This document shows, one piece after another, positions 1 through 24,497 of a stretch of DNA of 64,000 bases (the first letter of the stretch is position 1; each line of letters opens with the position of its first letter). This DNA comes from an uncultured delta proteobacterium (GTDB taxonomy: Bacteria; Desulfobacterota; Desulfobacteria; Desulfobacterales; SpSt-501): contig CAWHEZ010000004.1 of NCBI GenBank assembly GCA_963828345.1, positions 64,539 through 128,538 on the forward strand, given 5' to 3'. The notes under the pieces were generated by a model. That model saw only the letters and a program-made list of their open reading frames with translations, ran no database searches and was not told the origin of the DNA. Position numbers and translations under genes: made by a program.

Positions 1-501
1 CGCGAGACCCTGCCCCTGGTGCGCTGCATGCGGTTGGGGGTCGCGCCGGTTCTCGGGGAGGAACGGGCCCGGTTCTCGCTGCTGTTCGTCGAGGACCTGG
101 CCGATGCCGTTTGCCACCTGCTCGACACCCCGCACTGGCGGCCGGGGCCGTTCGAAATCCACGACGGGCAGGCGGGCGGGTACGGCTGGGGCGACCTGGT
201 CCGGACGGTGGGCCGGATCGTCGGCCGGCGGGTTCATGCCGTGCGCATCCCGGCCCCGCTCCTGCGGGTCGCCGCCCGGGTCAGCCTGGGGGTTGCCCGC
301 CGATGCGGCGGCCTGCCGATGCTCACGCCCGGCAAGGTCCGGGAGCTGACCCACCCCGACTGGGTGTGCGACGACGCCCCGCTGCGCGCGGCGACCGGCT
401 GGCGACCGGCGACACTGCTGGAGCCCGGCATGCGGCGCACGCTCGCGCGGCTGCGCGGCGGGCGCTGGGCGGACGGGCAGCGCGGATCGCGCAACCGTTG
501 A
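1..501 (+). CDS. NAD-dependent epimerase/dehydratase-family (extended SDR) reductase, C-terminal part; the 5' end lies outside the window
   Basis: Frame 1 is open from base 1 to the TGA at 499-501. The C-terminal region (LLFVEDLADAV, LTPGKVRELTHPDW) resembles extended-SDR/NDUFA9-like reductases. It lies directly upstream of ACP and an alpha-oxoamine synthase. Confidence 0.6.
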   Translation, partial: RETLPLVRCMRLGVAPVLGEERARFSLLFVEDLADAVCHLLDTPHWRPGPFEIHDGQAGGYGWGDLVRTVGRIVGRRVHAVRIPAPLLRVAARVSLGVARRCGGLPMLTPGKVRELTHPDWVCDDAPLRAATGWRPATLLEPGMRRTLARLRGGRWADGQRGSRNR

Positions 502-598
502 TTCTTTCGCGCCGTTCGTCTAAAAAGGAAACATCCTGAACGGATACGAGCGTGCCGCTGCCGGCGCGCGTTCATCGCAGATACGTCGAGGACCGGGT

Positions 599-847
599 AT
601 GCAGACATACGAAGAACTCCTGTCGCAGGTGATCGAGATGGTGCAGCCGCTGGCCCCTCAGGGGCGCAGCGTCCGCGAGGACACGGACTTGGTCTCCGAC
701 CTCGAGTTCGACTCCCTCAAGGTCATGAGCCTCGTCGAACGGGTGGAAGACCGGTTCGACATCTCGATCCCGCTCAACATCCTGCCGGACGTCCGCACCG
801 TTCGCGACTTTACCGTGCAGCTCCAGAAACTGTTGGGGAAAGTGTGA
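599..847 (+). CDS. acyl carrier protein
   Basis: 82 aa, acidic, with the phosphopantetheine-attachment motif LEFDSLKVMSL (DSL). Its stop overlaps or abuts the next gene's start. Confidence 0.85.
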   Translation: MQTYEELLSQVIEMVQPLAPQGRSVREDTDLVSDLEFDSLKVMSLVERVEDRFDISIPLNILPDVRTVRDFTVQLQKLLGKV

Positions 848-2052
848 CCATGGCGATTTTCGACAAGTTCCAGCAACTGGCCGCCACGCGCCAGGCCCTG
901 TCCGAAAGCGGGATCCAGGCGATCAGCGTGGTGATGGACCAGGTGGTTTCGGCCACCGAAGCGGTGGTGAACGGGCAGCGCGTCATCCTGGCCGGAACCA
1001 ACAACTACCTCGGGCTCACCTTCCACCCCGACTGCATCGAAGCCGCCTGCCAGGCGGTGCGCACCCAGGGCACCGGGACCACCGGCTCGCGGGCCGCCAA
1101 CGGCAGCTACTCGATCCACGTCCAGCTCGAGCGCGAGCTGGCCGATTTCCTCGGCCGGCGCGGGGTGATCGTCTTTTCGACCGGCTACGTGGCCAATCTC
1201 GGCATGCTGTCCACCCTGGCCGGCCCCGGGGATGTCTTCGTGATCGACGGGGACAGCCACGCCAGCATCTACGACGGGTGCCGCCTGAGCGGGGCGGAGA
1301 TCATCCGCTTCCGGCACAACGACCCGGCCGACCTGGACAAGCGGCTGCGCCGCCTCGGCGACCGGATCGCGAACACCCTCATCGTGGTGGAGGGCATCTA
1401 CAGCATGCTGGGCGACCGGGCGCCCCTGGCCGACATCGCCGCCGTCAAGCGCCGCCACCCGGGCGCGATGCTGGTGGTCGACGAGGCGCACTCGCTCGGG
1501 GTCCTCGGGGAGCACGGCCGGGGCATGGCCGAGGAGGCCGGGGTCGAAGCGGACGTCGACTTCGTCATCGGCACCTTCAGCAAGAGCCTGGGGGCGATCG
1601 GCGGGTACTGCGGCAGCGACCACCCCGAGCTCGACCTCATGCGCTTCGCCAACCGGCCCTACGTCTTCACCGCCTCCCCTTCGCCATCGATCATCGCTTC
1701 CACCCGGACCGCCCTCGCGGTCTTGCGGTCGCGCCCGGAGCTGCGCGATCGACTGTGGGAAAACGCCCGAACCCTCTACGGCCGCCTGCGCGACCTGGGG
1801 TATACTCTCGGCCCGGAGCCGAGCCCGATCATCGCCGTGCGTTTCGCGGAACGCGAGAAGGCCTTCGCGGCCTGGACGGCCCTGATCGAACGCGGGGTCT
1901 ACGTGAACCTCGTGCTGCCGCCCGCATCGCCCGACGGCGGGTCCCTGCTGCGCTGCAGCGTCAGCGCCGGCCACACCCCCGAGCAGATCGAGCACATCGC
2001 GCGGGCGTTCGGCGAGTTGCCGAAACCCATCGCCGGCCTGTCGGGCGCCTGA
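844..2052 (+). CDS. PLP-dependent alpha-oxoamine synthase (serine palmitoyltransferase / Kbl / BioF family)
   Basis: 402 aa. PLP-lysine motif GTFSKSLGAIGGY, plus GTTGSRAANG and DEAHSLGVLG motifs typical of the AOS family. Start is GTG 844 (overlapping the ACP stop) or ATG 850. Confidence 0.9.
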   Translation: MTMAIFDKFQQLAATRQALSESGIQAISVVMDQVVSATEAVVNGQRVILAGTNNYLGLTFHPDCIEAACQAVRTQGTGTTGSRAANGSYSIHVQLERELADFLGRRGVIVFSTGYVANLGMLSTLAGPGDVFVIDGDSHASIYDGCRLSGAEIIRFRHNDPADLDKRLRRLGDRIANTLIVVEGIYSMLGDRAPLADIAAVKRRHPGAMLVVDEAHSLGVLGEHGRGMAEEAGVEADVDFVIGTFSKSLGAIGGYCGSDHPELDLMRFANRPYVFTASPSPSIIASTRTALAVLRSRPELRDRLWENARTLYGRLRDLGYTLGPEPSPIIAVRFAEREKAFAAWTALIERGVYVNLVLPPASPDGGSLLRCSVSAGHTPEQIEHIARAFGELPKPIAGLSGA

Positions 2053-2101
2053 CGGGCTATCACCCTCCGGAGCAGGTTCTGAACGGGAAGCGTCTTCATT
2101 C

Positions 2102-3868
2102 ATGAGGCTTTTCTTTACACTCGCGCGGAAGTATCCGTGGCAGACGATTCTGACCCTGGTCGCTATCCTGTTCGCCGGGATATCCGAAGGCTTCGGCATC
2201 TCATCGCTGCTGCCGCTCCTCAACACGCTCTTTAACCAGGCCTCACAGGACGGCGCCGCCGCGGGTTCCCAACCTGCGTGGAGCCAGACGATAGACCAGA
2301 TTGTAAAGGAGGCCCTGGGGGTAATCGGCCTCGCCCCGAGCGTCGCGATCCTGTTGAGCCTGTTCGTCGCCTGCATCGCTCTCAAATGTCTGCTGGTCTA
2401 CCTGGCCAACAAGCAGATCGGGCTCACGGTGGTGATGATTGCCACCGACATGCGCCTGACCCTGCTCAAGTCCCTCTTCGCCTCCAACTGGGAATATTTC
2501 ATCCGCCAGCCGGTCGGGCAGCTGACCAACGCCGTCGCTACCGAGGCGCATCGCGCCTCAACCGCTTTCAGCTTCGGCGCCAAGATGGCGTCCATGCTGA
2601 TCGAGGCCATGGTCTACACGGTCCTGGCGCTCCTGGTCTCCTGGAAAGCCACGCTGATCGCGCTGGGCGGGGGCGTCTTCATCGTGGTCATCCTGCGGCG
2701 GCTGGTTCGCAAAAACCGACGGGCCGGCGCCAAGCAGACCGTCCACATGCAGTCCTTGATCGCCCAGATGACCGATGTCCTCATTTCGATCAAGCCGTTG
2801 AAAGCCATGGCACGTGAAAAGCAGTCCGACGTGGTGTTGACCGACACCACCCGTCGCCTGAACCGTGCGCTCCAAAAGCAGGTCCTGAGCAAAGCCGCAC
2901 TCGGCTCGTTCCAGGAGCCGCTCACCATGGTGTTCTTGGTTCTTTGCCTCTATATCGCCCTGTCGTATTGGGACCTGTCCCCCACGGCCATCATCGCCAT
3001 GGTCTTCTTCATCGGAAAAACTCTCAAGCAAATCGAAAAAATCCAAAAAGAATACGTGAACCTGGTCGAATACGACAGCGCCTACTGGTCGCTGCTCGAA
3101 AAAATCGAGGGGGCACGGAACGCCCGGGAACTGTTCACCGGGACGCTGCAACCGGTCTTCGCCCGCGAGGTCCGGATCGACGGCGTGAGTTTCGCCTATG
3201 GCGACCGCACGGTGTTGGACGACGTGTCGCTGGTGCTCCCGGCGGGGTCCTTTTCGGCGCTGCTGGGCCCTTCCGGTTCGGGGAAAAGCACTCTCGCAGA
3301 CCTGCTGACAGGGTTGCTTCGCCCACAGAAGGGTGATATCTGGGTCGACGGCGCGCCCCTGTCGCAGATCGATATCGGCAGCTGGCGCGAGATGATCGGA
3401 TACGTGCCGCAGGAAAACCTGCTCATGCACGACACGGTCCTCAACAACGTCACGCTGGGAGAGGCCGCCATCAGCGAAGAGGATGTGGAAACCGCGCTGC
3501 GGGCCGCCGGGGCATGGGATTTTGTCCAGCACATGCCCGAGGGTGTCCGCAGCATCGTCGGGGAACGCGGCAGCATGGTTTCCGGGGGCCAGCGCCAGCG
3601 CATCGCCATAGCGCGCGCATTGGTCAAGCGCCCGAAATTGTTGATCCTGGACGAGGCGACGACAGCGCTCGACCCGAAAACCGAAAGAGAGATCTGCGTG
3701 ACCCTCCAGCAGTTGAAGGGGGGCGTCACCATCCTGGCGGTTTCGCATCAATCGGCGGTCGTGGAATGTGCCGATTGGGCCTACCAGCTGAAGGAAGGCA
3801 AGCTGACTCAGATCAAGGCGCCGACGGGGCCGGTGACTCGGCCTGAATCGCTGAGGACGATTTCCTGA
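2102..3868 (+). CDS. ABC exporter with fused permease and ATPase (MsbA/lipid-flippase-like)
   Basis: 588 aa. Hydrophobic six-TM-like N-terminal half. C-terminal NBD with Walker A GPSGSGKST, signature VSGGQRQRIAIARAL and Walker B LLILDEATTALD. Confidence 0.9.
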   Translation: MRLFFTLARKYPWQTILTLVAILFAGISEGFGISSLLPLLNTLFNQASQDGAAAGSQPAWSQTIDQIVKEALGVIGLAPSVAILLSLFVACIALKCLLVYLANKQIGLTVVMIATDMRLTLLKSLFASNWEYFIRQPVGQLTNAVATEAHRASTAFSFGAKMASMLIEAMVYTVLALLVSWKATLIALGGGVFIVVILRRLVRKNRRAGAKQTVHMQSLIAQMTDVLISIKPLKAMAREKQSDVVLTDTTRRLNRALQKQVLSKAALGSFQEPLTMVFLVLCLYIALSYWDLSPTAIIAMVFFIGKTLKQIEKIQKEYVNLVEYDSAYWSLLEKIEGARNARELFTGTLQPVFAREVRIDGVSFAYGDRTVLDDVSLVLPAGSFSALLGPSGSGKSTLADLLTGLLRPQKGDIWVDGAPLSQIDIGSWREMIGYVPQENLLMHDTVLNNVTLGEAAISEEDVETALRAAGAWDFVQHMPEGVRSIVGERGSMVSGGQRQRIAIARALVKRPKLLILDEATTALDPKTEREICVTLQQLKGGVTILAVSHQSAVVECADWAYQLKEGKLTQIKAPTGPVTRPESLRTIS

Positions 3869-4074
3869 GCGGTCGCCTCTCCGCCCGGGCCTACTCGCCC
3901 GGATGGGACGGTTCGCGCCGCGTGAGCGCTTCAGCGTTTCCCGAGACCGGTCAGGTTCCGGGAGCCGACCGGCGACACCGGCGGCGATCCTGAAGAAATT
4001 CAAACCGCTTGAAAAAAACGACCGCTGCTGCGGTCGCACCACGTTTCACCATTAATTCAATGGGGGGGATAGAC

Positions 4075-5142
4075 ATGCACAGGTTAGTCATTGATCAAAA
4101 GACCATCGACGACACGACCGACTGTTATTCGATTGCGGAGATCGGGCACAACCATCAGGGCAAGGTGAAGACCTGTCTGGAGATGTTCAAGGTGGCCAAG
4201 GAGTGCGGGGCGGACGCGGTGAAGCTGCAGAAGCGCGACAACCGCAGCCTCTACACGGCCGCGGGCTATGCCAAGCCCTACGACAACGAGAACAGCTACG
4301 GGGCCACCTACGGGGAGCACCGCGAGGCGCTGGAGTTCGGGGAGAGCGAGTACCGGGAGCTGAAGGCCTACGCCAAGGAGATCGGGGTGACGATGTTCGC
4401 CACGGCCTTTGATTTCCCGAGCGTGGATTTTCTGGCCAAGCTGGACATGCCGGCCTACAAGGTGGCCTCGGGGGATTTGAAGAACACGCCGCTGCTGGCC
4501 TACATGGCGAAGGTGGGCAAGCCGATCGTCTTGAGCACGGGCGGGGGCACGATGGAGGACGTCAACCGGGCCTACGACACGATCATGCCGATCAACCCGC
4601 AGCTGTGCATCCTGCAGTGCACGGCGGGGTATCCGGCGGCCTTCGAGGAGTTGAACCTGCGGGTGATCACCACCTTCCGCGAGCGGTTTCCGCAGGCGGT
4701 GGTGGGGCTGTCCTCGCACGACAACGGGATTGCGATGGCGCTGGCGGCCTACCTGCTGGGGGCGCGGGTGGTGGAGAAGCACTTCACGCTGAACCACACC
4801 ATGAAGGGCACGGACCACGCCTTTTCGCTGGAGCCGATCGGGTTTCAGAAGATGGTGCGGGACCTCCGGCGGGTGCGCACGGCGCTGGGCGACGGGGTGA
4901 AGCGGGTGTACGACAGCGAGGTGACCCCGATGGTGAAGATGGGCAAGCAGCTGGTGGCGGCGCGGGATCTGCCGGCGGGGCACGCGATCCGGCGCGAGGA
5001 CATCGCCATCAAGTCGCCCGGGGGCGGTCTGCAGCCCTACGAGATCGACAAGGTCATCGGCCGCACCACGCGCGTGGCGCTCAAGGCCGACGACGCCTTC
5101 AGCTTCGAAACCCTCAACGGCGCCGGACCCCTGAAGAAGTAG
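4075..5142 (+). CDS. NeuB-family nonulosonic/sialic acid synthase with C-terminal SAF domain, closest in motif content to animal NANS-type (sugar-9-phosphate) synthases
   Basis: Motifs IAEIGHNHQG, ADAVKLQKR, YGATYGEHREALEF, ILQCTAGYP, LSSHDNG and KGTDHAFSLEP. Preferred start is ATG 4075, preceded by a G-rich RBS at 4062-4069; the ORF track starts at 4009. Confidence 0.9.
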   Translation: MHRLVIDQKTIDDTTDCYSIAEIGHNHQGKVKTCLEMFKVAKECGADAVKLQKRDNRSLYTAAGYAKPYDNENSYGATYGEHREALEFGESEYRELKAYAKEIGVTMFATAFDFPSVDFLAKLDMPAYKVASGDLKNTPLLAYMAKVGKPIVLSTGGGTMEDVNRAYDTIMPINPQLCILQCTAGYPAAFEELNLRVITTFRERFPQAVVGLSSHDNGIAMALAAYLLGARVVEKHFTLNHTMKGTDHAFSLEPIGFQKMVRDLRRVRTALGDGVKRVYDSEVTPMVKMGKQLVAARDLPAGHAIRREDIAIKSPGGGLQPYEIDKVIGRTTRVALKADDAFSFETLNGAGPLKK

Positions 5143-5147
5143 GCCGG

Positions 5148-5957
5148 ATGGACGCCTTCGACCTCAAGGGGGAGATCGCCGTGGTCACCGGCGCCCTGGG
5201 CAAACTGGGACCGGTGTGGGTGGAAACGCTCTTGGACGCGGGGGCGAACGTCCTGGCCATAGACCGTGCCGGGGCCCCACCGTCCAAGGCGTTCACGGAC
5301 CTCAGCGGGCGGTTCGGCCCGGAACGGCTGACCTGCGCCGCAGCGGACGTCTGCAGCCGGCCCGAGCTCGAAACGGCCCTCGCCCGCTGCACCGAGGTCT
5401 TCGGCTCCCCGACCATCCTCGTCAACAACGCCGGGATCGATGCGCCGCCCGCGGCCGACGGCAAAGGGTACCGTCTGGATGAGATCCCGCTGGCGGTGAA
5501 CCTGCGGATCCTCGAGGTGAACGCCGCGGGCCTGTTCCTGGTCTCCCAGGTGTTCGGCGCCGCCATGGCGGCCAACCGCCGAGGCTCCATCATCAACATC
5601 GGCTCCCTCTACGCCAGCGTCTCGCCGGACGCACGGTTTTACGACCACATCCCGTGCGATCCCCCGTTCATCAAGCCGCCGGCCTACGGGGCGTCCAAGG
5701 CGGCCGTCATCAACCTCACGAAATACCTGGCCGCCCATCTGGCGCCGCACGGGGTGCGCGTCAATGCCCTCTCCCCGGGCGGGGTCCTGGGCGGGCAGGA
5801 CGAGGACTTCAAACGCAAGTTCTGCGCGCGAGTCCCCCTCGGCCGCATGGCCACCGCGGAGGACCTGCGCGGCCCGCTCCTGTTTCTATCCTCGCCGGCA
5901 TCCGCTTACGTTACCGGGATCAACCTGAAAGTGGACGGCGGCTTCACCGTCTGGTAA
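5148..5957 (+). CDS. short-chain dehydrogenase/reductase (SDR)
   Basis: ATG at 5148, in frame within track ORF 4605..5957. TGALGKLG cofactor motif, NNAG, and YGASKAA catalytic YxxxK. Confidence 0.9.
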   Translation: MDAFDLKGEIAVVTGALGKLGPVWVETLLDAGANVLAIDRAGAPPSKAFTDLSGRFGPERLTCAAADVCSRPELETALARCTEVFGSPTILVNNAGIDAPPAADGKGYRLDEIPLAVNLRILEVNAAGLFLVSQVFGAAMAANRRGSIINIGSLYASVSPDARFYDHIPCDPPFIKPPAYGASKAAVINLTKYLAAHLAPHGVRVNALSPGGVLGGQDEDFKRKFCARVPLGRMATAEDLRGPLLFLSSPASAYVTGINLKVDGGFTVW

Positions 5958-5961
5958 GAAA

Positions 5962-6002
5962 TTGAAGTCCGCCGGGGCACCCCGGCGGACTTCAATTTTT
6001 TT
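5962..6002 (+). terminator. rho-independent terminator after the SDR gene
   Basis: Near-perfect stem TTGAAGTCCGCCGGGG / CCCGGCGGACTTCAA followed by a T7 run. Confidence 0.7.
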
Positions 6003-6035
6003 CTGAAGGGGGAGACCCAAACGACCTCAACCTCC

Positions 6036-7508
6036 ATGAGCTATCCCGGCATCCCCGGGCTCATACCGAACTGGATCGACGGTCGCGAGTCGGACACATC
6101 GACGGGCGAGACCCTGCCGAAGGTTTCCCCCGTCACCGGCAGAGAGATCTGCCGGTTGGCACGCTCGCGCTCGGCCGACGTCGGGCTGGCGGTCGCTGCC
6201 GCGGCCCGCGCCTTCGGGGACTGGTCCGCGCTCACGCCCGTGCGGCGCGCCGAGCTGCTGCTGGCCGTCGCCCGGGAACTCGAGCGCCGACGCGAGGAGA
6301 TGGCCGCCATCGTGGCCGCCGAAACCGGCATGTCCGTCAAGGCCGCGCTGGCCGAGACCGGCGGGGCGATCGCGCTCGGCGAGTTCATGGCCGGCGAGGG
6401 GCGCCGGCTTTACGGCCGCACGACGACCAGCGCCGTGCCGCACCGGACGACGATGACGGTACGCGAGCCCCTCGGGGTCGCCGGCCTCATCATTGCCGCC
6501 AACACCCCGATCGCCAACGTCGCCTGGAAGGTGTTCCCGGCCCTCGTGTGCGGCAACGCGGCCGTCCTGAAGGCCGCCGAGGACACCCCGGCCACGGCCT
6601 GGTTCTTCGGCCGCATCGCCCATGACGCCGGCCTCCCCTCCGGGGTGCTCAACATCGTCCAGGGGTTGGGCGAAGACGCCGGCGCCCCGCTGGTGGCCGA
6701 CCCGCGCGTGGCCGTGGTCAGCTTCACGGGATCGACCGCCGTCGGCCGCGAAATTGCACGCGTGGCCGGCTCGCGCCTGGCCCGGGTGTCGCTCGAGCTG
6801 GGCGGCAAGAACCCGCTGGTGGTCTGCGACGACGCCGACCTCGACCAGGCGGCCCGCTGGGCGGCCCTCTCGGCCTTCAGCAACGCGGGCCAGCGCTGCG
6901 CGGCCGGCAGCCGCGTCATCGTGTTCGACGCGATCTACGAGCGCTTCCGCGACCGCCTCGTGGCGCTCGCCGAGGGGCTGAGGGTCGGCCCCGCCGACGA
7001 CGACGATTTCGGGCCGGTCATCAACGCGAACCAACTCGCGGGCATGCTGGCCGCCGTCGAGCGCGCGCGCGCCGCAGGGGCGCGGGTCCTGACCGGCGGC
7101 AGGCGCCTCACCGACCCCGCACACGCGGACGGGTTTTACCTGGCGCCGACCCTGCTCGAGAACGTGGCGCCGGACGCCGAGATCTCGACCACCGAGGTCT
7201 TCGGCCCGGTCGCCTGCCTCTACCGCGTCCGCGACTACGCGTCGGCCCTGGCGCTCGCCAACCGCTCCCCGTACGGTCTGACCGCCTGCATCCACACCCG
7301 CAGCATCCACCGCGCGCTCGACTTCACCCGGCGGGTCCAGGCGGGGGTGGTCGTGGTCAACGCGGGGACCTTCGGCAGCGAGCCCCACATGCCCTTCGGC
7401 GGGGTCAAGCAGTCCGGCAACGGCTCCCGCGAACCGGGCACCGAAGCGCTGGATGTCTACTCCAACCTGAAAAACGTGATCATGACCTTCGACCCGGGTC
7501 AAACCTGA
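6036..7508 (+). CDS. NAD(P)-dependent aldehyde dehydrogenase
   Basis: 490 aa. ELGGKNP catalytic Glu motif and FSNAGQRCAAGSR catalytic Cys motif. Confidence 0.9.
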   Translation: MSYPGIPGLIPNWIDGRESDTSTGETLPKVSPVTGREICRLARSRSADVGLAVAAAARAFGDWSALTPVRRAELLLAVARELERRREEMAAIVAAETGMSVKAALAETGGAIALGEFMAGEGRRLYGRTTTSAVPHRTTMTVREPLGVAGLIIAANTPIANVAWKVFPALVCGNAAVLKAAEDTPATAWFFGRIAHDAGLPSGVLNIVQGLGEDAGAPLVADPRVAVVSFTGSTAVGREIARVAGSRLARVSLELGGKNPLVVCDDADLDQAARWAALSAFSNAGQRCAAGSRVIVFDAIYERFRDRLVALAEGLRVGPADDDDFGPVINANQLAGMLAAVERARAAGARVLTGGRRLTDPAHADGFYLAPTLLENVAPDAEISTTEVFGPVACLYRVRDYASALALANRSPYGLTACIHTRSIHRALDFTRRVQAGVVVVNAGTFGSEPHMPFGGVKQSGNGSREPGTEALDVYSNLKNVIMTFDPGQT

Positions 7509-7539
7509 GCGACCGAAATCCTATAACCCCCTGACCTCG

Positions 7540-8304: not shown

Positions 8305-8441
8305 GAGTGTCTCGCCGGCGATTCAACCGGGAACGTCTCTTCGGTTGACTCCAGGCGGGATCGGGTTGCCCGGCGGGTGGGACCGCACCCAACCGGTTGA
8401 GTGGGAGACCCGGTGCTTCAGGTGGGGGGAGTCGGGCTGTG

Positions 8442-9383: not shown

Positions 9384-9391
9384 GCCCGGCC

Positions 9392-10303: not shown

Positions 10304-10307
10304 GCGG

Positions 10308-10983
10308 CTAATCCGTTGGGACCCCGAAGGTCTCGTAACTCGATCTGGCGAGGGCCTTGGCCGGGTTGCCCACGTAGACCTTGCCCGGCTCGGTGTCCCG
10401 GACGACGACCGCCCCGGACCCGATGACGCAGTCCCGTGCGACGCGGATCTTGTCGTTGAAGGTGGCGTTCACGCCGACAAAGCAGGATTCGCCGATGTCG
10501 CAGAACCCGGAGATCACCGCGTGCGAGGCGATGTAGGCGTCTTGCCGGATCCGGGTCTGGTGCCCGACATGGTTCCCGCTCCAGAGAAATGACATTGTCC
10601 TCGACGACGACACCGTGCTGGATGACGTTGTTCTCGAGGATGAAGCAGTTTTCCCCTATGTGCGCCGTGCGCCAGACGAACGCCCGCGAGCTGACGTAGC
10701 TCGCGAATGCATAGCCCCTATCTTTCACCTGCCGGTAGATGCGGGCACGGACGCGATTGAGCTGGGTGTACGAGATGGCCACGAACGCCCGGTAGTCCTG
10801 CGGCGGGAAACGCTGCTCCACCGTTTCCAGGGGCACCACGGGCAGGTCGTAGAGCCGTTCCGTCTTTCTGTACTTCTCTTCGACGGCGAACCCGGCCACC
10901 CGCATGTCCGAGTCGTGCGTGAAGTACTCGCAGGCGAGTTGCGCCGTCTCTCCGTCCCCGATGATGATGAGTTCCTGTGGCAT
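10308..10983 (-). pseudogene. NeuD/PglD-family sugar N/O-acyltransferase (left-handed beta-helix), broken by one frameshift
   Basis: The N-terminal domain MPQELIIIGDGETAQLA...ENNVIQHGVVVEDNVI is in the frame of ORF 10300..11001. The hexapeptide-repeat C-terminus LWSGNHVGHQTRIRQDAYIASHAVISGFCDIGESCFVGVNA is in the frame of ORF 10308..10613. The junction is at an A3/T3 run around 10587-10589. Confidence 0.75.
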
Positions 10984-11047
10984 GGCACCTGCCGATCTCA
11001 AATGAGTGGAAAGATGTAGGTCACGATGAGCCCGGGGCGCCGGGGCT

Positions 11048-12109
11048 TCAATTCTTCATCTTCTTGAACGCCTTGCCTGTGATGGGGTTCCGCCCCAAGA
11101 CGCGCTTGAAGGAATACCTCAGCTCGATCCACGGCCGCCGCGCCAGCGACAGCAGCGCGAGCAGGAGCACGCCGGGATGGTAGCGGTAATACCTCAGGAT
11201 GCGGGCATCGCACATGTGGTCCACGTAATCCAGCGCCTGCTTGAAGGCCATGCGCTTGACGGCGGTGGCGTGCGGGCCCGGCATGTTCGCCCGGTAGAGA
11301 TTGTAAAAGACCACGAACTTGACCTTTTTCTTGGTCCGGATCCACTGCGGGTCGGACCGCGAGTAGGACTCTGCCGGAGTGCCGATCTCGCACACGCAGC
11401 GGGGCGAAACCGCCACGGACCCCACGGCGCTCAGGATGAAAATATATGCGCACACGTTGTCCTCGCCCGAGTTCAGCCGGCGGGCCAGGGGTGCGTTGAC
11501 CATGAAGGGCTCGTCGTACGCCCCCAGCGCCAGGGCCTTCTCGTGGTCCAGCACGATGGCCTGGGTCCAGTCCAGGCCGCCCCTCCGGTAGAGGCGGATG
11601 AACTCGTCCCCCGGCAGCACGTGCCAGTCCTCCTGGGAGCTCAGCGTGTCGGGGATTTCGAGCATCCGTCGGTCGCTGTTTTCAAACACGGAGTTCGCCA
11701 GGCAGAGGTGGCAACCGGGCCGGGAGCCCATCACCTGCACGGCGTCGGCGATGAAGCCGGGGTCGGTGAACCAGTTGTCGTGCGCGAAGGGCACCAGGTA
11801 CTTCCCCCGGGCTTGCCCGACGGTGAAGCGGAAATTGTCCATCACGCCGAGATTGCCGGTCTGGCGGTGGAATCGGATCTGAAACCGGTCGTTCTCGGCT
11901 CCTGCAAATTCGCGGACGACCCCCTCAAGCGGCCGGGGCGAGCAGTCGTCCGAGACGATCACCTCGAGCGGCCGGTACCGCTGCTCGAGCGCGGACTGCA
12001 GCGTTCGCCGCAGATAGTCCGGCTGGTTGTAGGCCGGGATGACGATGCTGACGAGATTTTCCTGGAGGGGCATTCGGCCGTCCTGGGCACGCTGAAATTC
12101 CGGGTGCAT
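11048..12109 (-). CDS. family 2 glycosyltransferase
   Basis: VSIVIPAYNQPDYLRRTLQSALEQ...VIVSDDCS (GT-A DxD region). 353 aa. Confidence 0.85.
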   Translation of the reverse strand: MHPEFQRAQDGRMPLQENLVSIVIPAYNQPDYLRRTLQSALEQRYRPLEVIVSDDCSPRPLEGVVREFAGAENDRFQIRFHRQTGNLGVMDNFRFTVGQARGKYLVPFAHDNWFTDPGFIADAVQVMGSRPGCHLCLANSVFENSDRRMLEIPDTLSSQEDWHVLPGDEFIRLYRRGGLDWTQAIVLDHEKALALGAYDEPFMVNAPLARRLNSGEDNVCAYIFILSAVGSVAVSPRCVCEIGTPAESYSRSDPQWIRTKKKVKFVVFYNLYRANMPGPHATAVKRMAFKQALDYVDHMCDARILRYYRYHPGVLLLALLSLARRPWIELRYSFKRVLGRNPITGKAFKKMKN

Positions 12110-12114
12110 GGGTA

Positions 12115-13219
12115 TTAACTGGGGCAGGCTGCCACAGCGTTTATGACCTGCTCCTGCAAGTCGGGCGTCAGATGAGGTCCCATGGGCAGGCTCAACACGG
12201 TTTCAGCGATGCGTTCGCTGACCGGAAACGCCCCGGGCCCGAAGCCCAGATCCGCATACGCATCCGAGCGGTGGGGCGGGATCGGGTAGTGAATCAACGT
12301 TTCCACTCCGGCTGCTGCCAGGTGCCGCTGAAGATCGTCCCGACGCGGATGCCGCACCACGAACAGGTGCCAGGCGGGTTCGACACCCTCGGGCACATGC
12401 GGCAGCCCGAGCGACGGCACCCGCGCCAGGCCCTCCAGGTAGCGCGCCGCGAGGGTCCGGCGCCGATCGTTCCAGTCGTCCAGGCGGGGGAGCTTGACCC
12501 GCAGCACGGCCGCCTGCAGCTCGTCCAGGCGCGCGTTGAACCCCTGGATCTCGTGGTGGTACTTCACCGCCGAGCCGTAGTTGCGCAGCCGCCGCACGCG
12601 GGCGGCCAGCGCGTCGTCGTCGGTCACCAGGGCGCCGGCGTCGCCCAGGGCGCCGAGGTTCTTGCCGGGGTAGAAGCTGAACGCGGCCGCGTCGCCGAGG
12701 CTGCCGGCGCGCCGGGTCCGGTAGCGTGCGCCCTGCGCCTGGGCGGCGTCCTCGATCACCTTCAGGCCGTGCCGCCGGGCCAGAGTCGACGATGGGCTGC
12801 ATGTCGGCCGGCTGGCCGTAGAGGTGCACCGGCATGACGGCCCGGGTCCGCGGAGTGATCGCCCCTCGACCCGGCTCCGCCGCGATGGTGTGAGTGGCCT
12901 CCTCCGGCTCGACCGGCACCGGGACCGCGCCGGTCCTGGACACCGCCAGCCAGGTGGCGATGAAGGTGTTCGTCGGCACGATGACCTCGTCGCCCGGACC
13001 GATCCCGTACCCTCGCAGCGCCAGCTCGAGCGCGTCGAGACCGTTGCTGATCCCGATGCAGTGGCGCGCCCCGCAGTAGGCGGCAAACTCGTTCTCGAAG
13101 CCCTCGACCTCCGGGCCCAGAACGTACCAGCCGGATGACACGACCCGCCGGACGGCGGCGTCGATCTCCGCCTGCAGCTCGCGGTAGGCGGCGCGCAGAT
13201 CCAGGAACGGGACGTTCAC
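12115..13219 (-). pseudogene. DegT/DnrJ/EryC1 sugar aminotransferase (FdtB/QdtB-like), broken by one frameshift
   Basis: The N-terminus from GTG 13219 ([16 protein letters not shown]...[17 protein letters not shown]) is in one frame. The C-terminus ([19 protein letters not shown]...[16 protein letters not shown]...) is in the frame of ORF 12115..13086. One extra nt lies around 12784. The start overlaps the fdtA-like stop (GTGA). Confidence 0.85.
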
Positions 13220-13638
13220 GCCGGGGTCTCCCGCACGCCGCGGATGAAGTCGGGGTAGTGGCGGTAGTAATCCGCTTCGTCGTAGAACTCGGAGGCCAGC
13301 GCGAGGCAGACCGAACCGGAGGAGAAATTGTCGATGTCGCGCCAGATCATGGGCGGGATGTAAAGCCCGTAGTAGGACCGGTTGAGGTGGAACTTGAGCT
13401 TGTTGAAGCCGTCGTCCACCGTGACGTCGAAGCTGCCGGACATGGCGATGAGGAACTGGTGCAGCGCCTTGTGGGCGTGACCGGCCCGCAGCGCTCCGCC
13501 CGGCACGTCGTAGAGGTAATACACGCGCCGGATGTCGAAGGGGATGTGGCGCGAGTTCTCCAGGAACGTGAGGTTGCCGCGCGCGTCGAGGATCTTGGGG
13601 AGGTCGATCAGCTTGCATTTGTCGGAAATCATGCTCAT
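13216..13638 (-). CDS. WxcM/FdtA-like cupin: dTDP-4-keto-6-deoxyhexose 3,4-ketoisomerase
   Basis: 140 aa. LPKILDARGNLTFLE...RVYYLYDVPGGALRAGHAHK motifs typical of FdtA/QdtA. Confidence 0.8.
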   Translation of the reverse strand: MSMISDKCKLIDLPKILDARGNLTFLENSRHIPFDIRRVYYLYDVPGGALRAGHAHKALHQFLIAMSGSFDVTVDDGFNKLKFHLNRSYYGLYIPPMIWRDIDNFSSGSVCLALASEFYDEADYYRHYPDFIRGVRETPA

Positions 13639-13967
13639 TCACCCTTTCATCCGGGGTCGGATCGGAGACAGCGCCGAGATGCCCCTGCAGCGGATGCACG
13701 GACCGGCTGCCTGCTCGAATCCGCAGCGGGTTCCTGATACAAAAAAAGGTGTTATGGACTACCTCACCGGCCAGTGATTGTCAACCAAACGCCCGCATCC
13801 GGGCCTGCGCCGGGCGGGGCGGCACGGGCGATCGCCGGGTCTATTCGGTTGACAACGCAACGCGGTTAAGGCAAAAAGGTTCATTTTTTCAGGATCCATC
13901 TGCCCTAGAGCGCGCACCGGCGGCCGCCCGCGCAATCCCCCGGTCCGATGAGGAGCTTCACCGGCAC

Positions 13968-15371
13968 ATGTCGACCACCCGGCACCTGCTCATACCCGTC
14001 GAAAACCAGGTTCGGGAGCTGGATCCCAAGCTGCTCCTGGCCTGTGTCGCGGCGCGGCGGGGATTCACGTCGGTCATCGGCTCCCGGCGCGAGATGGAGA
14101 TGCTGATCGACTCCTTCCCGCGCAGCATCTACCTCTCCAAGAGCATGACCGTGCGCAGCCTGCTCTTCTTCTGGGTGGCGGCCAAGTACGGGCACGAGAT
14201 CATCACCTGGGACGAGGAGGCCCTCGTCCACCTGCCCCCCGAAACCTACTTCAGCCGCCGCCTGCACCCGGCCGCCATCCGCTACGTCAGCCACCTGTTC
14301 GCCTGGGGGGAGGAAAACGCGGAGCTGTGGCGGCAGTACCCGGAGCTGCCCCGGGGGATCCCCATCCATGTCACCGGCAACCCGCGCAGCGACATGCTGC
14401 GGACGCAGATGCACCCCTACTACGCGGCCGACGTGGCGGCGATCCGCCGGGAGTTCGGCAATTTCATTCTCGTCAACACCAACTTCAACCACGTCAACGC
14501 CTTCGGGGCGGACATGAACCTCTTCAAGCCCGCCCGGCGGCCCGGGGAGCGGCCCCGCTTCGGCCGGGCCGCCCGCGGCATGAGCCGGGAGTACGCGGAG
14601 GGGCTGCGCGACCACAAGCAGGCGGTCATGGCCGACTTCGAGCGCATGATCCCCCTGCTGGAGGACAGCTTCCCGGAGGTCACCGTCGTCGTGCGACCCC
14701 ACCCCACCGAGAGCCACGACGTCTATCGCCGGCTCGCGGAAGGATGCCGCCGGGTGCGGGTGACCAACCAGGGCAACGTCGTGCCCTGGCTCCTGAGCGC
14801 CCGGGCGCTGATCCACAACGGCTGCACCACGGGGGTCGAGGCCTTCGAGCTGGGGGTCCCGGCCCTGAGCTACCGCGCCACGGTCAACGACACCTACGAC
14901 AACGGCTTCTACCGGCTGCCGAACGCGGTCAGCCACAACTGCTTCGGCTTCGACGCGCTGCGACAGACCCTGCGCGGGGTGCTGGACGGCGCGGTCACGG
15001 CGCCCGACACCGAGGAGCGCCGCCGGCTCGTCCGCCATCACCTCGCCGCCCAGGACGGCCCGCTCGCCTGCGAGCGCATTCTCGACGTCCTCGAGGGTGT
15101 CGCGACCGGGGCGCCCCGTTCCCGGTCCCTGCTCGGGCGCCTGGACGGCTGGGTCACTTCCAAGGGTCTGCACGCCCTGCGGCAGATCAAGTCCGTGCTG
15201 CCCGGCTCCCACAACCGGCCGGAGTTCCAGCGCCACCGCTACCCGGGCATGCCGCTCGAGGAAGTGGCCGAGCGCCTGGCGCGCTTCCAGAAGCTGCTGG
15301 GGGACACGACCCCGCTGGCGGTCGAGCCGGTCACGGCCACCATCTACCGCGTGCGGGCGGCAAGGGCCTGA
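13968..15371 (+). CDS. uncharacterised surface-carbohydrate biosynthesis protein, paralogue 1 (putative GT-B-like transferase)
   Basis: Start at MSTTRHLLIPVENQVRELDPK (ATG 13968). About 60% identical by eye to the next gene. Conserved blocks TWDEEALVHLPP, HVTGNPR, LVNTNFNHVNAF, VVVRPHPTE and HNGCTTGVEAF. Confidence 0.6.
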   Translation: MSTTRHLLIPVENQVRELDPKLLLACVAARRGFTSVIGSRREMEMLIDSFPRSIYLSKSMTVRSLLFFWVAAKYGHEIITWDEEALVHLPPETYFSRRLHPAAIRYVSHLFAWGEENAELWRQYPELPRGIPIHVTGNPRSDMLRTQMHPYYAADVAAIRREFGNFILVNTNFNHVNAFGADMNLFKPARRPGERPRFGRAARGMSREYAEGLRDHKQAVMADFERMIPLLEDSFPEVTVVVRPHPTESHDVYRRLAEGCRRVRVTNQGNVVPWLLSARALIHNGCTTGVEAFELGVPALSYRATVNDTYDNGFYRLPNAVSHNCFGFDALRQTLRGVLDGAVTAPDTEERRRLVRHHLAAQDGPLACERILDVLEGVATGAPRSRSLLGRLDGWVTSKGLHALRQIKSVLPGSHNRPEFQRHRYPGMPLEEVAERLARFQKLLGDTTPLAVEPVTATIYRVRAARA

Positions 15372-15381
15372 GGGCGCAGCC

Positions 15382-16791
15382 ATGTCCCGTCCACCGCTGA
15401 TCATCCCGGTCGAAAACCAGGTGCGCGAGCTCGACCCGAAGCTGCTGCTGGCGGCCGTCGCCGCGCGCCGGGGCTTCACCTCCATCCTCGGCTCGCACCG
15501 CGAGGTCGACTTCCGCATCGCCGCCTTCCCGCGCGGGCTCTACCTCAACAAGAGCTTCACCGACCGCAACCTGAAGATGTTCCAGATCATGCGCCGGCTC
15601 GGGCACCTCATCCTGACCTGGGACGAGGAGGCGCTCGTCCACCTGCCGCCGGCGATCTACTACTCGCGGCGGCTCTCCCCCACGGCCATCCGCTGCGTGT
15701 CCCATCTCTTCGCCTGGGGCGAGGACAACGCCGAGCTGTGGCGGCGCTACCCCGAGTTCCCCGCCGGGCTGCCGATCCACGTCACCGGCAACCCGCGCAA
15801 CGACCTGCTCCGGCCGGAGCTGCACCCGTTTTACGCGGACCAGGTGCGGGCCATCCGCGAGCGCTACGGCGACTTCCTGCTGGTCAACACCAACTTCAAC
15901 CACGTGAACGCCTTCTTCCCGGCCCAGAACCTGTTCCGGCCGGCGCAGACCCCCGGGGAGCCGCCCGTCTTCGGCAAGGCGGGCGTGGGCATGACGCGCG
16001 AATTCGCCGAGGCCCTGCGCGACCAGAAGCAGGCCGTGTTCGAGGCCTTCCTGCGCCTGATCCCGGAGCTCGCGCGCGCCTTCCCGCAGCTGGCCGTCGT
16101 CGTGCGGCCGCACCCGACCGAAGGGCAGGAGGTCTACAAGGGGCTCGCGGCCGGCAACGGCCGGATCCACGTCACCAACGAGGGCAACGTGGTCCCGTGG
16201 CTCATGGCGGCCCGGGCGCTGGTGCACAACGGCTGCACGACCGGGGTGGAGGCCTTCGTCATGCGCACCCCGGCCTTCAGCTACCGGCCCTCGATCTGCC
16301 CGGCGATCGACGACAGCTTTTACGTGCTGCCGCACGGCCTGAGCCACCAGTGCGTCACCGCCGCGGAACTGCTCGACCGGATCCGCGCGGTGCTGGACGG
16401 GCGGCTCGGCGCCGCCGGCGGCGACGCGCGCTCGGCGCTCGTCCACCGCTACCTGACCGGCCAGGACGGGGCGCTCGCCTGCGAGCGCATGGTGGACGTC
16501 CTCGAGACGATCGTGCAGGAGCGGCCCGGGCTGCCGGCCCCGCCGCTTCCGACCCGCGTCCTCGGCCGCCTGTTCGCCGAAGGCCGGTTCCTCGTGAAGC
16601 GGCTGAAAGCCTATTACCCCGGGTCCCACGCGCCCCCCGAGTTCCACCGGCACCGCTACCCGGACGTCACCGGGGAGGAGATGCTGCGGCGCATCCGACG
16701 CTTTCAGGACATCCTGGGGGACGATACCCCGATTCGCGTAGAGCCGATCGCCCCGCGCATCTTCCGCATCGCGCCCGAAGGCCGCCCGTAA
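15382..16791 (+). CDS. uncharacterised surface-carbohydrate biosynthesis protein, paralogue 2
   Basis: Start at MSRPPLIIPVENQVRELDPK (ATG 15382), 10 nt after paralogue 1. Carries the same conserved blocks. Confidence 0.6.
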   Translation: MSRPPLIIPVENQVRELDPKLLLAAVAARRGFTSILGSHREVDFRIAAFPRGLYLNKSFTDRNLKMFQIMRRLGHLILTWDEEALVHLPPAIYYSRRLSPTAIRCVSHLFAWGEDNAELWRRYPEFPAGLPIHVTGNPRNDLLRPELHPFYADQVRAIRERYGDFLLVNTNFNHVNAFFPAQNLFRPAQTPGEPPVFGKAGVGMTREFAEALRDQKQAVFEAFLRLIPELARAFPQLAVVVRPHPTEGQEVYKGLAAGNGRIHVTNEGNVVPWLMAARALVHNGCTTGVEAFVMRTPAFSYRPSICPAIDDSFYVLPHGLSHQCVTAAELLDRIRAVLDGRLGAAGGDARSALVHRYLTGQDGALACERMVDVLETIVQERPGLPAPPLPTRVLGRLFAEGRFLVKRLKAYYPGSHAPPEFHRHRYPDVTGEEMLRRIRRFQDILGDDTPIRVEPIAPRIFRIAPEGRP

Positions 16792-16892
16792 ACGGCGGAG
16801 GGGTATCGCTTGACAGCCGAAGACCGGTTCGGGTATAGATCACCGGCACGGACGCGTCACCGTCCGATTTTTTATTTTAGGGGTAGACGGAT

Positions 16893-17753
16893 ATGAAAGT
16901 CTTGATCCTGGGGTTGGGGAAATCCGGCACCACCGGCATGGTGTACAAGGTTGCGGGCGGGCTCCCGAACTGCCACGCATTTTCGGGCGGCAAGCCCGGC
17001 AAGTACAGCGGCGACTACGAAAACGCAGTCTACAAGCACACCTACGAAGAGCGCAAGGGCAAGAACTTCGAGGTCTACCGCAAGCACTTCGCCCGGTTTC
17101 AATACGACCGCAAGGTGTGGATGGCGCGCGACCCCCGGGACGCCGCCGTGAGCCGCATCCTCTACCGCTTCCACAAGGGGCTGCTGTTCAACCGCAAGCA
17201 GTACGAGGCCTACTTCGATCTCATCCTGAAAAAGGAGCAGAACCCCCGGGCGGTCCCGTTCATCGAGATCTGCCGCTACGCCAGCCACCTGGATTGGCCG
17301 GTCAGCCGTGAGAAGGTGATCGAGGAAGAGCGGGTGCGCTACAGCCGCATGCGGGATTTCGTGAAGGGCCTCGGCGAGGGGTGGTACCTCTTCAAGTACG
17401 AGGACATGGTCACCGGGCAATTCACGGACATCAACCGGTACCTGGGGTTCGAGCTGAAGTCCGAGGCCGAGGTGCCCAAGGGCACCGGCAAGGACAAGGT
17501 GGTGCGCAAGAAGGCCTTCGGGGACTGGCGCCACTGGTTCACCGAGGAGGACGTGGCGCTGTTCAAACCGGCCTACCTGCCCTACATGGAGGCGATCGGC
17601 TACGACTGCGAGGACTGGGCCCCGGCGGCCGATCCCGTGATCGAGCCGCAGTTCTCGTCGGTCTACGTCAAGAACCTGGCGAGCAAGGGCCACTCCAACG
17701 TCATCAAGCGGTTCTACGACAACCTCATGCAGCGCTACTACGCGCGGACCTGA
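16893..17753 (+). CDS. sulfotransferase-family protein
   Basis: N-terminal GLGKSGTTG resembles the PAPS 5'-phosphosulfate-binding loop and ARDPRDAAVS resembles the 3'-phosphate-binding motif. 286 aa. Confidence 0.7.
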   Translation: MKVLILGLGKSGTTGMVYKVAGGLPNCHAFSGGKPGKYSGDYENAVYKHTYEERKGKNFEVYRKHFARFQYDRKVWMARDPRDAAVSRILYRFHKGLLFNRKQYEAYFDLILKKEQNPRAVPFIEICRYASHLDWPVSREKVIEEERVRYSRMRDFVKGLGEGWYLFKYEDMVTGQFTDINRYLGFELKSEAEVPKGTGKDKVVRKKAFGDWRHWFTEEDVALFKPAYLPYMEAIGYDCEDWAPAADPVIEPQFSSVYVKNLASKGHSNVIKRFYDNLMQRYYART

Positions 17754-17779
17754 CCGGACCCGCGTTCGGCCCGTACCGA

Positions 17780-17810
17780 GACCACCGGCGAACGCCGGTG
17801 GTCTTTTTTT
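17780..17810 (+). terminator. rho-independent terminator after the sulfotransferase gene
   Basis: GACCACCGGCG-AA-CGCCGGTGGTC stem followed by T7. Confidence 0.7.
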
Positions 17811-21332: not shown

Positions 21333-21497
21333 CGGTGTACCCCCCCGATCCTGCTGGTGTGCCCCCCCGTTGGGGCCACGCCGATCATACCCGTTTTCGC
21401 CGCGACTACAAGAGGGTTTGCAGCACCCGTGCAGGCTTGTCAAAGCGCGGGCGAGCCGCTATGATGCGCCGCAACTTCACGGCAGGAGGACGGCACA

Positions 21498-24430: not shown

Positions 24431-24497
24431 AGTGGCGCCACTTCTCCTCCGCTCCCGCGCACGGGAGCCGGTCTCATACCAAAGCGGCCGAGGGCTG

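Follow-up and report, generated by a model that had tools for sequence, protein, structure and literature searches.

The closest described relative of the locus treated here is the sphingolipid cluster of Caulobacter crescentus (CC_1152-CC_1168), which carries aasR, cerR, acpR, spt, cerS, a ceramide kinase gene and genes for Tam41-like, MobA-like and LptF2/G2 proteins (Olea-Ozuna et al., 2024; PMC11324152). The sphingolipid head groups of Caulobacter are phosphoglycerate or hexose/hexuronic acid. A second point of comparison is the group 2 capsule of E. coli and Neisseria, in which the beta-Kdo (3-deoxy-D-manno-oct-2-ulosonic acid) transferases KpsS and KpsC act on a phosphatidylglycerol-derived lipid, with an ATP-binding cassette (ABC) exporter. 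The present work concerns 64,000 nucleotides from an uncultured delta proteobacterium of the Desulfobacterales (contig CAWHEZ010000004.1, positions 64,539 to 128,538), this whole stretch being referred to as the window. Its left end is the right-hand 18 kb of an envelope-lipid locus of about 27 kb, in which a serine palmitoyltransferase (Spt) gene and an ABC exporter gene stand beside a cassette for a cytidine monophosphate (CMP)-activated ulosonic acid, two TIGR04396 genes and a sulfotransferase gene. The reading favoured here, tentatively, is that the locus makes a short glycan, both acidic and sulfated, that is carried on a lipid (most likely ceramide) and flipped by the ABC exporter; serious rivals are a lipopolysaccharide-core acceptor and mere adjacency of separate systems. 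Literature searches turned up no account of spt linked to a NeuB/CMP cassette, nor of the cassette itself, and in a Black Sea survey of Spt-bearing metagenome-assembled genomes the neighbouring genes were not examined.

Conserved order of the lipid module, exporter and sugar cassette

Like the Caulobacter cluster, the locus encodes an acyl-AMP ligase, an epimerase-family reductase, a dedicated acyl carrier protein (ACP) and Spt, which are of the same families and in largely the same order, and it shares with that cluster LptF/G, a diacylglycerol kinase (DAGK)-type kinase, a Tam41-like protein and a MobA-like nucleotidyltransferase, here next to the core genes (PMC11324152). The fatty acyl-AMP ligase (FAAL), seen in contigs from the same organism two genes upstream of the ACP gene, scores 786 bits against PRK09192 (cut-off 600). 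The truncated product at the left edge of the window is 49-66% identical to the Epimerase-family genes of 307-328 amino acids that precede ACP-Spt in related loci, and the full CerR-like gene is present in three same-organism contigs (L093-L095) with Epimerase and 3Beta_HSD matches, its likeness to CerR being one of family and position. Judged from sequence, these genes are a real Caulobacter-type sphingolipid module, and homologues of its Spt with 72-99% identity are abundant in metagenomes. The Caulobacter cluster differs in having a Wzx-like candidate flippase, CC_1166, without an ABC exporter (PMC11324152), in having cerS, of which no counterpart was recognised here, and in being without the NeuB/CMP cassette, the TIGR04396 proteins and the sulfotransferase, all of which are present in this locus.

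Related loci were collected with an alignment of the cytidylyltransferase as query, one genome being taken per species; this returned 216 relatives, from which 80 loci were kept and compared in a tblastn table, while spacing was measured in 21 loci with an Spt identity of 69-87%. The original prediction had proposed that co-occurrence and synteny across related genomes be used to check its claim of a single system, and the order ACP, Spt, ABC exporter, NeuB, short-chain dehydrogenase/reductase (SDR), aldehyde dehydrogenase (ALDH, not always present) and CMP-transferase was found in at least 16 species-level Desulfobacterota genomes as well as in several metagenome contigs. Because the same order recurs in so many species-representative genomes, the arrangement is more than chance. 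The genes for the acyl-AMP ligase, epimerase, ACP, Spt, ABC exporter, NeuB, SDR, ALDH (optional) and cytidylyltransferase follow one another in this order in each of six long contigs with an Spt identity of 75-87%, and it is the tail after the cytidylyltransferase that varies, with methyltransferases, sulfotransferases, an FdtA/DegT/GT2 (family-2 glycosyltransferase) arm and TIGR04396 genes. The full run from Spt through the ABC exporter and NeuB to the CMP-transferase is also seen, at 83-87% protein identity to the window, in a contig binned as 'Hyphomicrobiales bacterium' (L009, JBLMXM010000408.1), which is probably a mis-binned Desulfobacterota contig.

Within this order the spacing is tight. 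In each of the 21 loci the ACP gene immediately precedes spt, 0-1 bp separating the two in all but one, and the ABC exporter gene is directly after spt in 21/21, at a distance of 20-180 bp. The gap between the exporter gene and neuB is 0-142 bp in 14/21 loci, the remainder having insertions of up to 2.1 kb, and where enough upstream sequence was available Spt-ABC lies directly 5' of NeuB on the same strand in 16/17 Desulfobacterota-type loci.

The exporter itself is a fused protein with its transmembrane and nucleotide-binding domains (TMD-NBD) in one chain, the best NCBIfam matches being HepA, MsbA and PglK, each below its cut-off. Two deeply divergent alleles occupy the same position in the locus, with either 66-80% or 40-49% identity to the window copy, and their divergence is uncoupled from that of Spt: in two loci from one sample (L002 and L003) Spt is 85% and 83% identical to that of the window, but the exporter 45% and 80%. 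The FdtA/GT2 arm was found only with the first (66-80%) allele, in 5/9 loci vs 0/10 with the second (Fisher p ~0.01, phylogeny not controlled). The exporter gene has a GC content of 0.61, against 0.66-0.70 in its neighbours. Such a pattern of alleles is what would be expected if the protein were a flippase recognising a variable glycan. No other observation speaks as strongly for the joining of lipid and glycan in one molecule as this exporter, which is fixed in position to spt while its allele varies together with the glycan arm.

The sugar cassette, the TIGR04396 paralogs and the sulfotransferase

In the NeuB/NeuA, PseI/PseF and LegI/LegF pathways, as in the present cassette, a NeuB-family synthase is paired with a CTP_transf_3 cytidylyltransferase; unlike in those pathways, the conserved partners here are an SDR and an ALDH. 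The NeuB homologue falls below the equivalog cut-offs (NeuB_NnaB 296 vs 400, PseI 237 vs 340) and shows much the same distance to the PseI, SpsE and NeuB entries of the PDB. The cytidylyltransferase, whose PDB matches are CMP-NeuAc synthetases (E 1e-23), misses every equivalog cut-off (PseF 136 vs 206) and keeps 66-84% identity in at least six phyla; in the PDB it too is roughly equidistant from the Pse, Neu and Sps enzymes. The SDR adjoins NeuB in nearly all loci and is closest in NCBIfam to sugar-acid dehydrogenases, among them KduD, while the ALDH, present in about two thirds of loci, has as its top NCBIfam match alpha-ketoglutaric semialdehyde dehydrogenase, below cut-off. In the conserved core of NeuB, SDR, ALDH where present and CMP-transferase there is no NeuC, PseB/C/H/G or LegB/C/H/G. 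Outside the Desulfobacterales-like clade further partners follow the cassette that are likewise foreign to the canonical pathways, namely a transketolase-like gene of about 650 amino acids and, in L053 and L068 out of four loci inspected, a HAD phosphatase.

Canonical sialic, pseudaminic and legionaminic acid were rejected as the product on the missed equivalog cut-offs and the absence of the upstream enzymes, and to that extent the nonulosonic-acid label of the original prediction is not supported. These two points, together with the other conserved partners, mean that the cassette sugar is probably undescribed. From their family matches we infer that the SDR/ALDH pair would oxidise the terminal carbon of the ulosonic acid, and the acid may thus be brought to a dicarboxylic form.

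A tandem pair of TIGR04396 genes is kept in most Desulfobacterota and gammaproteobacterial loci. Three tandem copies are found in L040, L045 and L049, and the copy number of transferase and sulfotransferase genes varies between species, with extra Sulfotransfer_3 genes beside the cassette in L001 and L004. No Pfam domain matches the paralogs, and when the PDB was searched with a profile built from 29 TIGR04396 proteins no sequence relative came up. An AlphaFold2 model of the first paralog, built from 46 sequences, has a GT-B fold (pLDDT 88, pTM 0.89), and three motifs, WDEEA, RPHP (R246-P-H-P249) and HNGCTT, are invariant across the family. The paralogs also match the BFO_1060 family weakly, at 37-38 bits vs a cut-off of 200, with an acidic motif W-D-E-E-A and not D/E-D/E-G. 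On the GT-B fold of the model, the HP motif and this weak match, the paralogs are probably CMP-sugar transferases. They resemble the pseudaminic/legionaminic acid transferases of Tannerella forsythia (Tanf_01245, BFO_1060), which are proteins of about 450 amino acids of GT-B/TagB-like type with an HP motif, encoded immediately downstream of the CMP-nonulosonic acid pathway (Tomek et al., 2017; PMC5420450). The glycan that these enzymes cap in Tannerella is O-linked to protein (PMC5420450), whereas here two or three tandem paralogs stand in a lipid context.

The matches returned by Foldseek for the model point in more than one direction, comprising UDP-GlcNAc 2-epimerases, TagF and a CMP-bound capsule polymerase (E 7e-9 to 2e-7, TM 0.45-0.61), the best of them being 2-epimerases, including NeuC, and not transferases. 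The claim of two paralogous putative transferases in the original prediction is supported in so far as the paralogs are plausible CMP-sugar transferases. A very improbable alternative, which accommodates these matches, is that the TIGR04396 proteins are sugar-nucleotide epimerase- or hydrolase-like enzymes of GT-B fold that feed NeuB, and that the sulfotransferase acts on the lipid to give sulfated ceramides. Extra Sulfotransfer_3 genes beside the cassette in several related loci speak for lipid sulfation, as does the finding of sulfate-1-deoxyceramides in euxinic waters with Desulfobacterota among the candidate producers (PMC11334938). The paralogs have no match to the Epimerase_2 Pfam family, however, and against an epimerase there also speak the HP motif, which is typical of transferases that use CMP-sugars, and the BFO_1060 match. 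Moreover, most loci with NeuB and the CMP-transferase lack the paralogs, which are hence not needed for synthesis of the sugar.

After the paralog pair in many loci comes the sulfotransferase of the PAPS (3'-phosphoadenosine 5'-phosphosulfate) type. Its translation can be read as carrying the PAPS-loop motifs (5'-PSB and 3'-PB) as GKSGTT (residues 9-14) and RDPRD, and no sequence relative of it was found in the PDB.

If the paralogs are transferases, the system proposed here would resemble the KpsS/KpsC linker in using a CMP-activated ulosonic acid, paralogous GT-B enzymes, a membrane-lipid acceptor on the cytoplasmic side and ABC export, without undecaprenol. It differs in that the window has no Capsule_synth match and encodes a fused MsbA-like half-transporter in place of KpsMT; KpsD/E are also absent here and no polymer would be built on top.

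The proposed pathway and its rivals

In the favoured pathway the acyl-AMP ligase encoded to the left of the window would load the dedicated ACP, and Spt would condense the acyl-ACP with serine; ceramide would then result from the action of the CerR-like reductase and of an N-acyltransferase whose gene lies outside the locus. In parallel, the NeuB homologue would join phosphoenolpyruvate (PEP) to an aldose, the SDR and ALDH would oxidise the product and the cytidylyltransferase would convert it to the CMP-activated ulosonic acid. The two TIGR04396 paralogs would pass the acid to a lipid acceptor at the cytoplasmic face, most likely ceramide or ceramide phosphate. In some strains the GT2 might add a dTDP-3-acetamido-3,6-dideoxyhexose supplied by FdtA, the DegT aminotransferase and the acetyltransferase. 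The sulfotransferase would add sulfate, and the ABC exporter would flip the finished short glycolipid, to be handed on to the outer membrane by LptFG. The sequence of these steps and the parts given to the exporter and the Lpt proteins are those suggested by the gene families and their order.

Four considerations favour one system. Order, strand and spacing are fixed over considerable divergence; the exporter is tied both to spt and to the glycan arm; there is no carrier-lipid initiating enzyme, polymerase or ligase; and there is a precedent in Caulobacter, where Lpt genes lie inside the sphingolipid cluster. The third of these rests on Pfam searches of all large open reading frames (ORFs) of the 64 kb and of 10 kb upstream in the same organism, which found no Wzx, Wzy, Wzz, Wza, Wzm/Wzt or KpsMT and no polyprenyl-phosphate initiating transferase of the WecA, WbaP or PglC type, the downstream flank likewise being without a polysaccharide polymerisation or export gene. 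An ordinary O-antigen or capsule locus was therefore rejected. This bears out the absence of Wzx, Wzy, Wzz and Wzm/Wzt noted in the original prediction, and the flanking O-antigen or capsule genes that it had said would undo its claim were not found.

Several observations weigh against the favoured reading, to which the epimerase likeness of the paralogs is to be added. Domain scans recognised no ceramide synthase in the locus, although no comparison with the sequence of the bacterial ceramide synthase (bCerS) was made. The GNAT encoded between the cassette and the amino-sugar genes was rejected as a ceramide synthase of the core, being absent from most related loci, and it too was not compared with bCerS. 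CerR has been reported to be periplasmic in Caulobacter (PMC11087976), which complicates the glycosylation of finished ceramide in the cytoplasm. The locus has three strand blocks (plus at 1-8304, minus at 8442-13638, plus at 13968-17753), and as the strand changes near 8.4 kb and again near 13.7 kb it comprises at least three transcription units.

The distribution of the cassette is a further difficulty. Besides Desulfobacterota it is found in Acidobacteriota, Chloroflexota, Gammaproteobacteria (Thiohalobacter, Thiogranum), Alphaproteobacteria and a Planctomycetota bin, with Thalassobaculum fulvum KCTC 42651 (L075) as a cultured carrier. No Spt lies within 10 kb of it in 26/42 loci with enough flank, all 26 except L050 being outside the Desulfobacterales-like group. 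In some of these organisms its neighbours belong to ordinary glycan loci: a Glycos_transf_4 initiating enzyme in a locus from Vicinamibacterales (Acidobacteriota; L068), GT1, GT2 and Capsule_synth-like genes in a Chloroflexota locus (L047), and a type I secretion ABC/HlyD pair with an RTX protein in Thalassobaculum. The TIGR04396 pair and the sulfotransferase follow the cassette in Gammaproteobacteria too, again without a nearby Spt, and in Thiohalobacter (L053) the paralogs and sulfotransferase are accompanied by an ABC exporter with 48% identity, with no Spt nearby. Since the cassette occurs without Spt in other phyla and inside other glycan loci, the NeuB/SDR/ALDH/CMP-transferase block is, on this distribution, a portable supply of donor sugar. 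As to the claim of one lipid-glycan system made in the original prediction, the recurrent tight linkage of lipid module, exporter and CMP-sugar genes lends it partial support within Desulfobacterota, while the independent phylogenetic distributions that were to count against it are found in part, the Spt-less range of the cassette being far wider and spanning at least six phyla.

This distribution gives weight to the view, still unlikely, that two or three independent systems abut here, a locus for a ceramide phosphoglycerate-like lipid with its ABC flippase and a portable glycosylation island. The island would comprise the CMP-ulosonate, TIGR04396 transferase, sulfotransferase and Fuc3NAc/Qui3NAc genes and would decorate a protein, for example of the S-layer, a pilin or a flagellin, or else a glycan carried on undecaprenol and started by an enzyme that is encoded elsewhere. 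In keeping with this the cassette has spread independently across phyla in protein- or polysaccharide-type contexts, the junction between exporter and NeuB tolerates insertions, and the number of transcription units also fits separate systems. Sugars of the Fdt type (dTDP-Fuc3NAc and dTDP-Qui3NAc) are classic constituents of O-antigens and S-layer glycans. Among characterised proteins, moreover, those nearest to the paralogs glycosylate S-layer protein glycans in Tannerella (PMC5420450). Independent systems would nevertheless not account readily for an adjacency that, despite considerable divergence, is kept in nearly all the Desulfobacterota loci for which enough flank was available, nor for an exporter allele that co-varies with the glycan arm and not with Spt, and no gene for an oligosaccharyltransferase, ligase, initiating transferase or target protein lies nearby.

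Rather more probable than separate systems, though on balance unlikely, is the decoration of lipopolysaccharide (LPS) or lipo-oligosaccharide, in which the CMP-ulosonate, amino sugar and sulfate would be added to lipid A-core at the cytoplasmic face, as happens in sialylated lipo-oligosaccharide, an MsbA-like paralog would flip the product and LptFG would export it, the sphingolipid genes being only neighbours, as outer-membrane lipid genes cluster. LptF and LptG beside the locus exceed the canonical equivalog cut-offs, and in the window, at a distance of 6 kb from the locus, there is an LpxL-like gene for a lipid A late acyltransferase, another being found upstream, beside LptF/G, in related contigs (L002, L003 and L006). 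On this evidence lipid A-core is an equally natural acceptor, which counts against ceramide, and with LpxL-like genes on both flanks the surroundings are a general outer-membrane-lipid neighbourhood. MsbA is among the top matches of the exporter, the cassette occurs without Spt elsewhere, and a short extension of the core needs no O-antigen polymerisation genes. Against LPS as the acceptor stand the tie of the exporter gene to spt, and not to lpx or lpt genes, in every locus measured, the lack of any heptosyl-transferase, Kdo-transferase or other core gene in the locus, and the LptF/G copies that Caulobacter also has within its sphingolipid cluster (PMC11324152).

Gene map, flanks and significance

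Genes were called first on GC at the third codon position and afterwards with Pfam and NCBIfam domain searches, the raw ORF lists of this DNA (G+C about 68%) being full of shadow ORFs (Table 1). The families named in the original prediction (ACP, Spt, ABC exporter, NeuB, CMP enzyme, FdtA, DegT, acetyltransferase, GT2, the paralogs, GNAT and sulfotransferase) were all recovered where it had placed them. It had missed the SDR, the aldehyde dehydrogenase, the 303-amino-acid propeller-like protein and the truncated CerR-like gene.

Table 1. Features of the locus and its immediate flanks, with positions counted from the first nucleotide of the window.
Feature	Position	Strand	Evidence or remark
Tam41-like 316-aa protein and DAGK-type kinase	upstream of position 1, first		same-organism contigs
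Metallophosphoesterase	upstream of position 1, next		same-organism contigs
LptG, LptF, MobA-like nucleotidyltransferase	upstream of position 1, next		same-organism contigs
590-aa FAAL, then full 328-aa epimerase-family gene	upstream of position 1, last		same-organism contigs
CerR-like NAD-epimerase-family reductase, 3' end (166 codons)	1-501	+	cut by window edge
Dedicated acyl carrier protein (AcpR-like)	599-847	+	PF00550, E 4e-9
Serine palmitoyltransferase (Spt)	850-2052	+	NCBIfam equivalog NF047599, 631 bits vs cut-off 500
Fused TMD-NBD ABC exporter, candidate flippase of the lipid-linked product	2102-3868	+	PF00664 and PF00005
NeuB-family PEP-condensing ulosonic acid synthase	4075-5142	+	PF03102, 1e-79; SAF domain
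SDR oxidoreductase	5148-5957	+	adh_short_C2, 3e-38
Aldehyde dehydrogenase (ALDH), optional cassette member	6036-7508	+	PF00171, 1e-151
CMP-ulosonate synthetase (CTP_transf_3 cytidylyltransferase)	7540-8304	+	PF02348, 82 bits
FemAB-like GNAT (Acetyltransf_6), accessory modifier	8442-9383	-	PF13480, 5e-8
303-aa beta-propeller-like protein, accessory	9392-10303	-	sub-threshold Pfam/NCBIfam GH130/GH32 similarity only
NeuD/PglB/VioB-type hexapeptide N-acetyltransferase	10300-10983	-	TIGR03570; split by 1-bp insertion at ~10592
Family-2 glycosyltransferase (GT2)	11048-12109	-	PF00535, 2e-19
DegT-family sugar aminotransferase (FdtB/QdtB-like)	12115-13219	-	PF01041; split by 1-bp insertion at ~12788
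FdtA-type dTDP-4-keto-6-deoxyhexose 3,4-ketoisomerase	13216-13638	-	PF05523, 7e-55; frame intact
TIGR04396 protein 1, putative CMP-ulosonate transferase	13968-15371	+	TIGR04396, 352 bits vs cut-off 125
TIGR04396 protein 2	15382-16791	+	TIGR04396, 347 bits vs cut-off 125; 57% identical to protein 1
PAPS-type sulfotransferase	16893-17753	+	PF00685, 29.6 bits vs 22
Intrinsic-terminator-like hairpin	17778-17805	+	12-bp stem, 8 GC pairs, T-run; 25 bp past the sulfotransferase stop codon
ORF of ~243-294 aa	17860-18740	-	without Pfam match; called as a gene in L087
PPDK_N and PEP-utilizer mobile-domain protein	18744-21443	-	without the usual C-terminal domain
Aldehyde:ferredoxin oxidoreductase	21498-23366	+	
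LpxL-like lipid A late acyltransferase	23582-24805	-	

The minus-strand genes are a variable accessory arm and not core: the GT2 travels with FdtA and DegT in L006-L008, L011-L013 and L015, and the GNAT was found beyond the same-organism contigs only in L007 and L012, where the propeller-like protein co-occurs with it. The arm resembles the dTDP-Fuc3NAc/dTDP-Qui3NAc pathway (FdtA/B/C, QdtA/B/C) in having the isomerase, DegT aminotransferase and hexapeptide acetyltransferase in one operon with a GT2, and differs from it in that the window lacks RmlA and RmlB, frame-shifts interrupt two of the three genes here and only a subset of related loci has the arm. TIGR03570 positions 2-125 of the acetyltransferase are in one frame and 125-202 in another, and the N-terminal and C-terminal halves of the PF01041 match of DegT are likewise in different frames.

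These breaks can be compared with three ENA contigs (L087-L089), 98-99% identical to the window, that were recovered with the first TIGR04396 paralog. An intact DegT of 367 amino acids and an intact acetyltransferase of 224 amino acids are present in both L088 and L089, and the two 1-bp insertions, in non-homopolymer contexts, are common to the window and L087. Each of the other assemblies has private indels, L088 in SDR and ALDH, L089 in NeuB, SDR, GNAT and sulfotransferase, and L087 in the second paralog. Decay of the amino-sugar arm to pseudogenes was not called, both genes being intact in two assemblies and scattered indels being found in all four. The two breaks are thus either assembly noise or a strain variant, the sharing of both non-homopolymer insertions with L087 making a real variant possible. 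Fragmented genes are also seen elsewhere in the window, with alpha-2-macroglobulin in two pieces (26835-32525), a periplasmic binding protein that matches only two thirds of its model and a sulfate-symporter fragment (36377-37273 and 37471-38028), and a NiFe hydrogenase matched in two stretches (41210-42559), which suggests indel noise in this assembly outside the locus.

The left limit is that of the window and not a boundary of the locus. The ACP sequence of the window was found exactly on long same-organism contigs, which extend the locus by about 9.7 kb leftwards; an exact look-up of its Spt gave no match. The right limit is real, being marked by the terminator-like hairpin followed by a convergent gene; a sigma-70 promoter scan of this high-GC DNA gave nothing usable. 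Between the hairpin and the PPDK-like gene (PPDK, pyruvate phosphate dikinase) lies an ORF on the minus strand, and beyond it the PPDK_N protein stands beside an aldehyde:ferredoxin oxidoreductase, the pair being kept there in same-organism contigs. NeuB is a consumer of PEP, and a PPDK_N-type protein adjoins the locus. Further downstream are genes for PBP1C, alpha-2-macroglobulin, amino-acid ABC systems, Hdr/Mvh-type redox proteins, HrpB, CarB and proline racemase.

The reading of widest consequence, which is more specific than the favoured one and doubtful as it stands, is that the locus is a Desulfobacterota counterpart of the gangliosides and sulfatides: a ceramide-anchored lipid of the outer membrane carrying an undescribed CMP-activated ulosonic acid and sulfate and served by a dedicated ABC flippase, with the cassette defining an acidic sugar that is both new and widespread. 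Should the model hold, the likeness to the animal lipids would lie in a ceramide that bears a CMP-derived ulosonic acid and/or sulfate, and it is an analogy only, the enzymes being unrelated and the compartment and organism wholly different.

According to workers on Caulobacter, neither a flippase nor a transporter of sphingolipids is so far identified (PMC11087976). The ABC exporter, whose gene stands directly after spt in 21 loci, offers a concrete candidate, and if the reading is true it would be the first bacterial sphingolipid flippase to be identified. The cassette is highly conserved and matches no characterised pathway, such that the identity of its sugar matters well beyond this locus. 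Known bacterial sphingolipid head groups are few, being hexoses, uronic acids, phosphoglycerate, phosphoinositol and phosphoethanolamine, and a ceramide bearing both ulosonate and sulfate would, if the reading is true, be a new class of lipid in environmentally abundant anaerobes and might explain some of the unassigned sulfated sphingolipids of anoxic waters.

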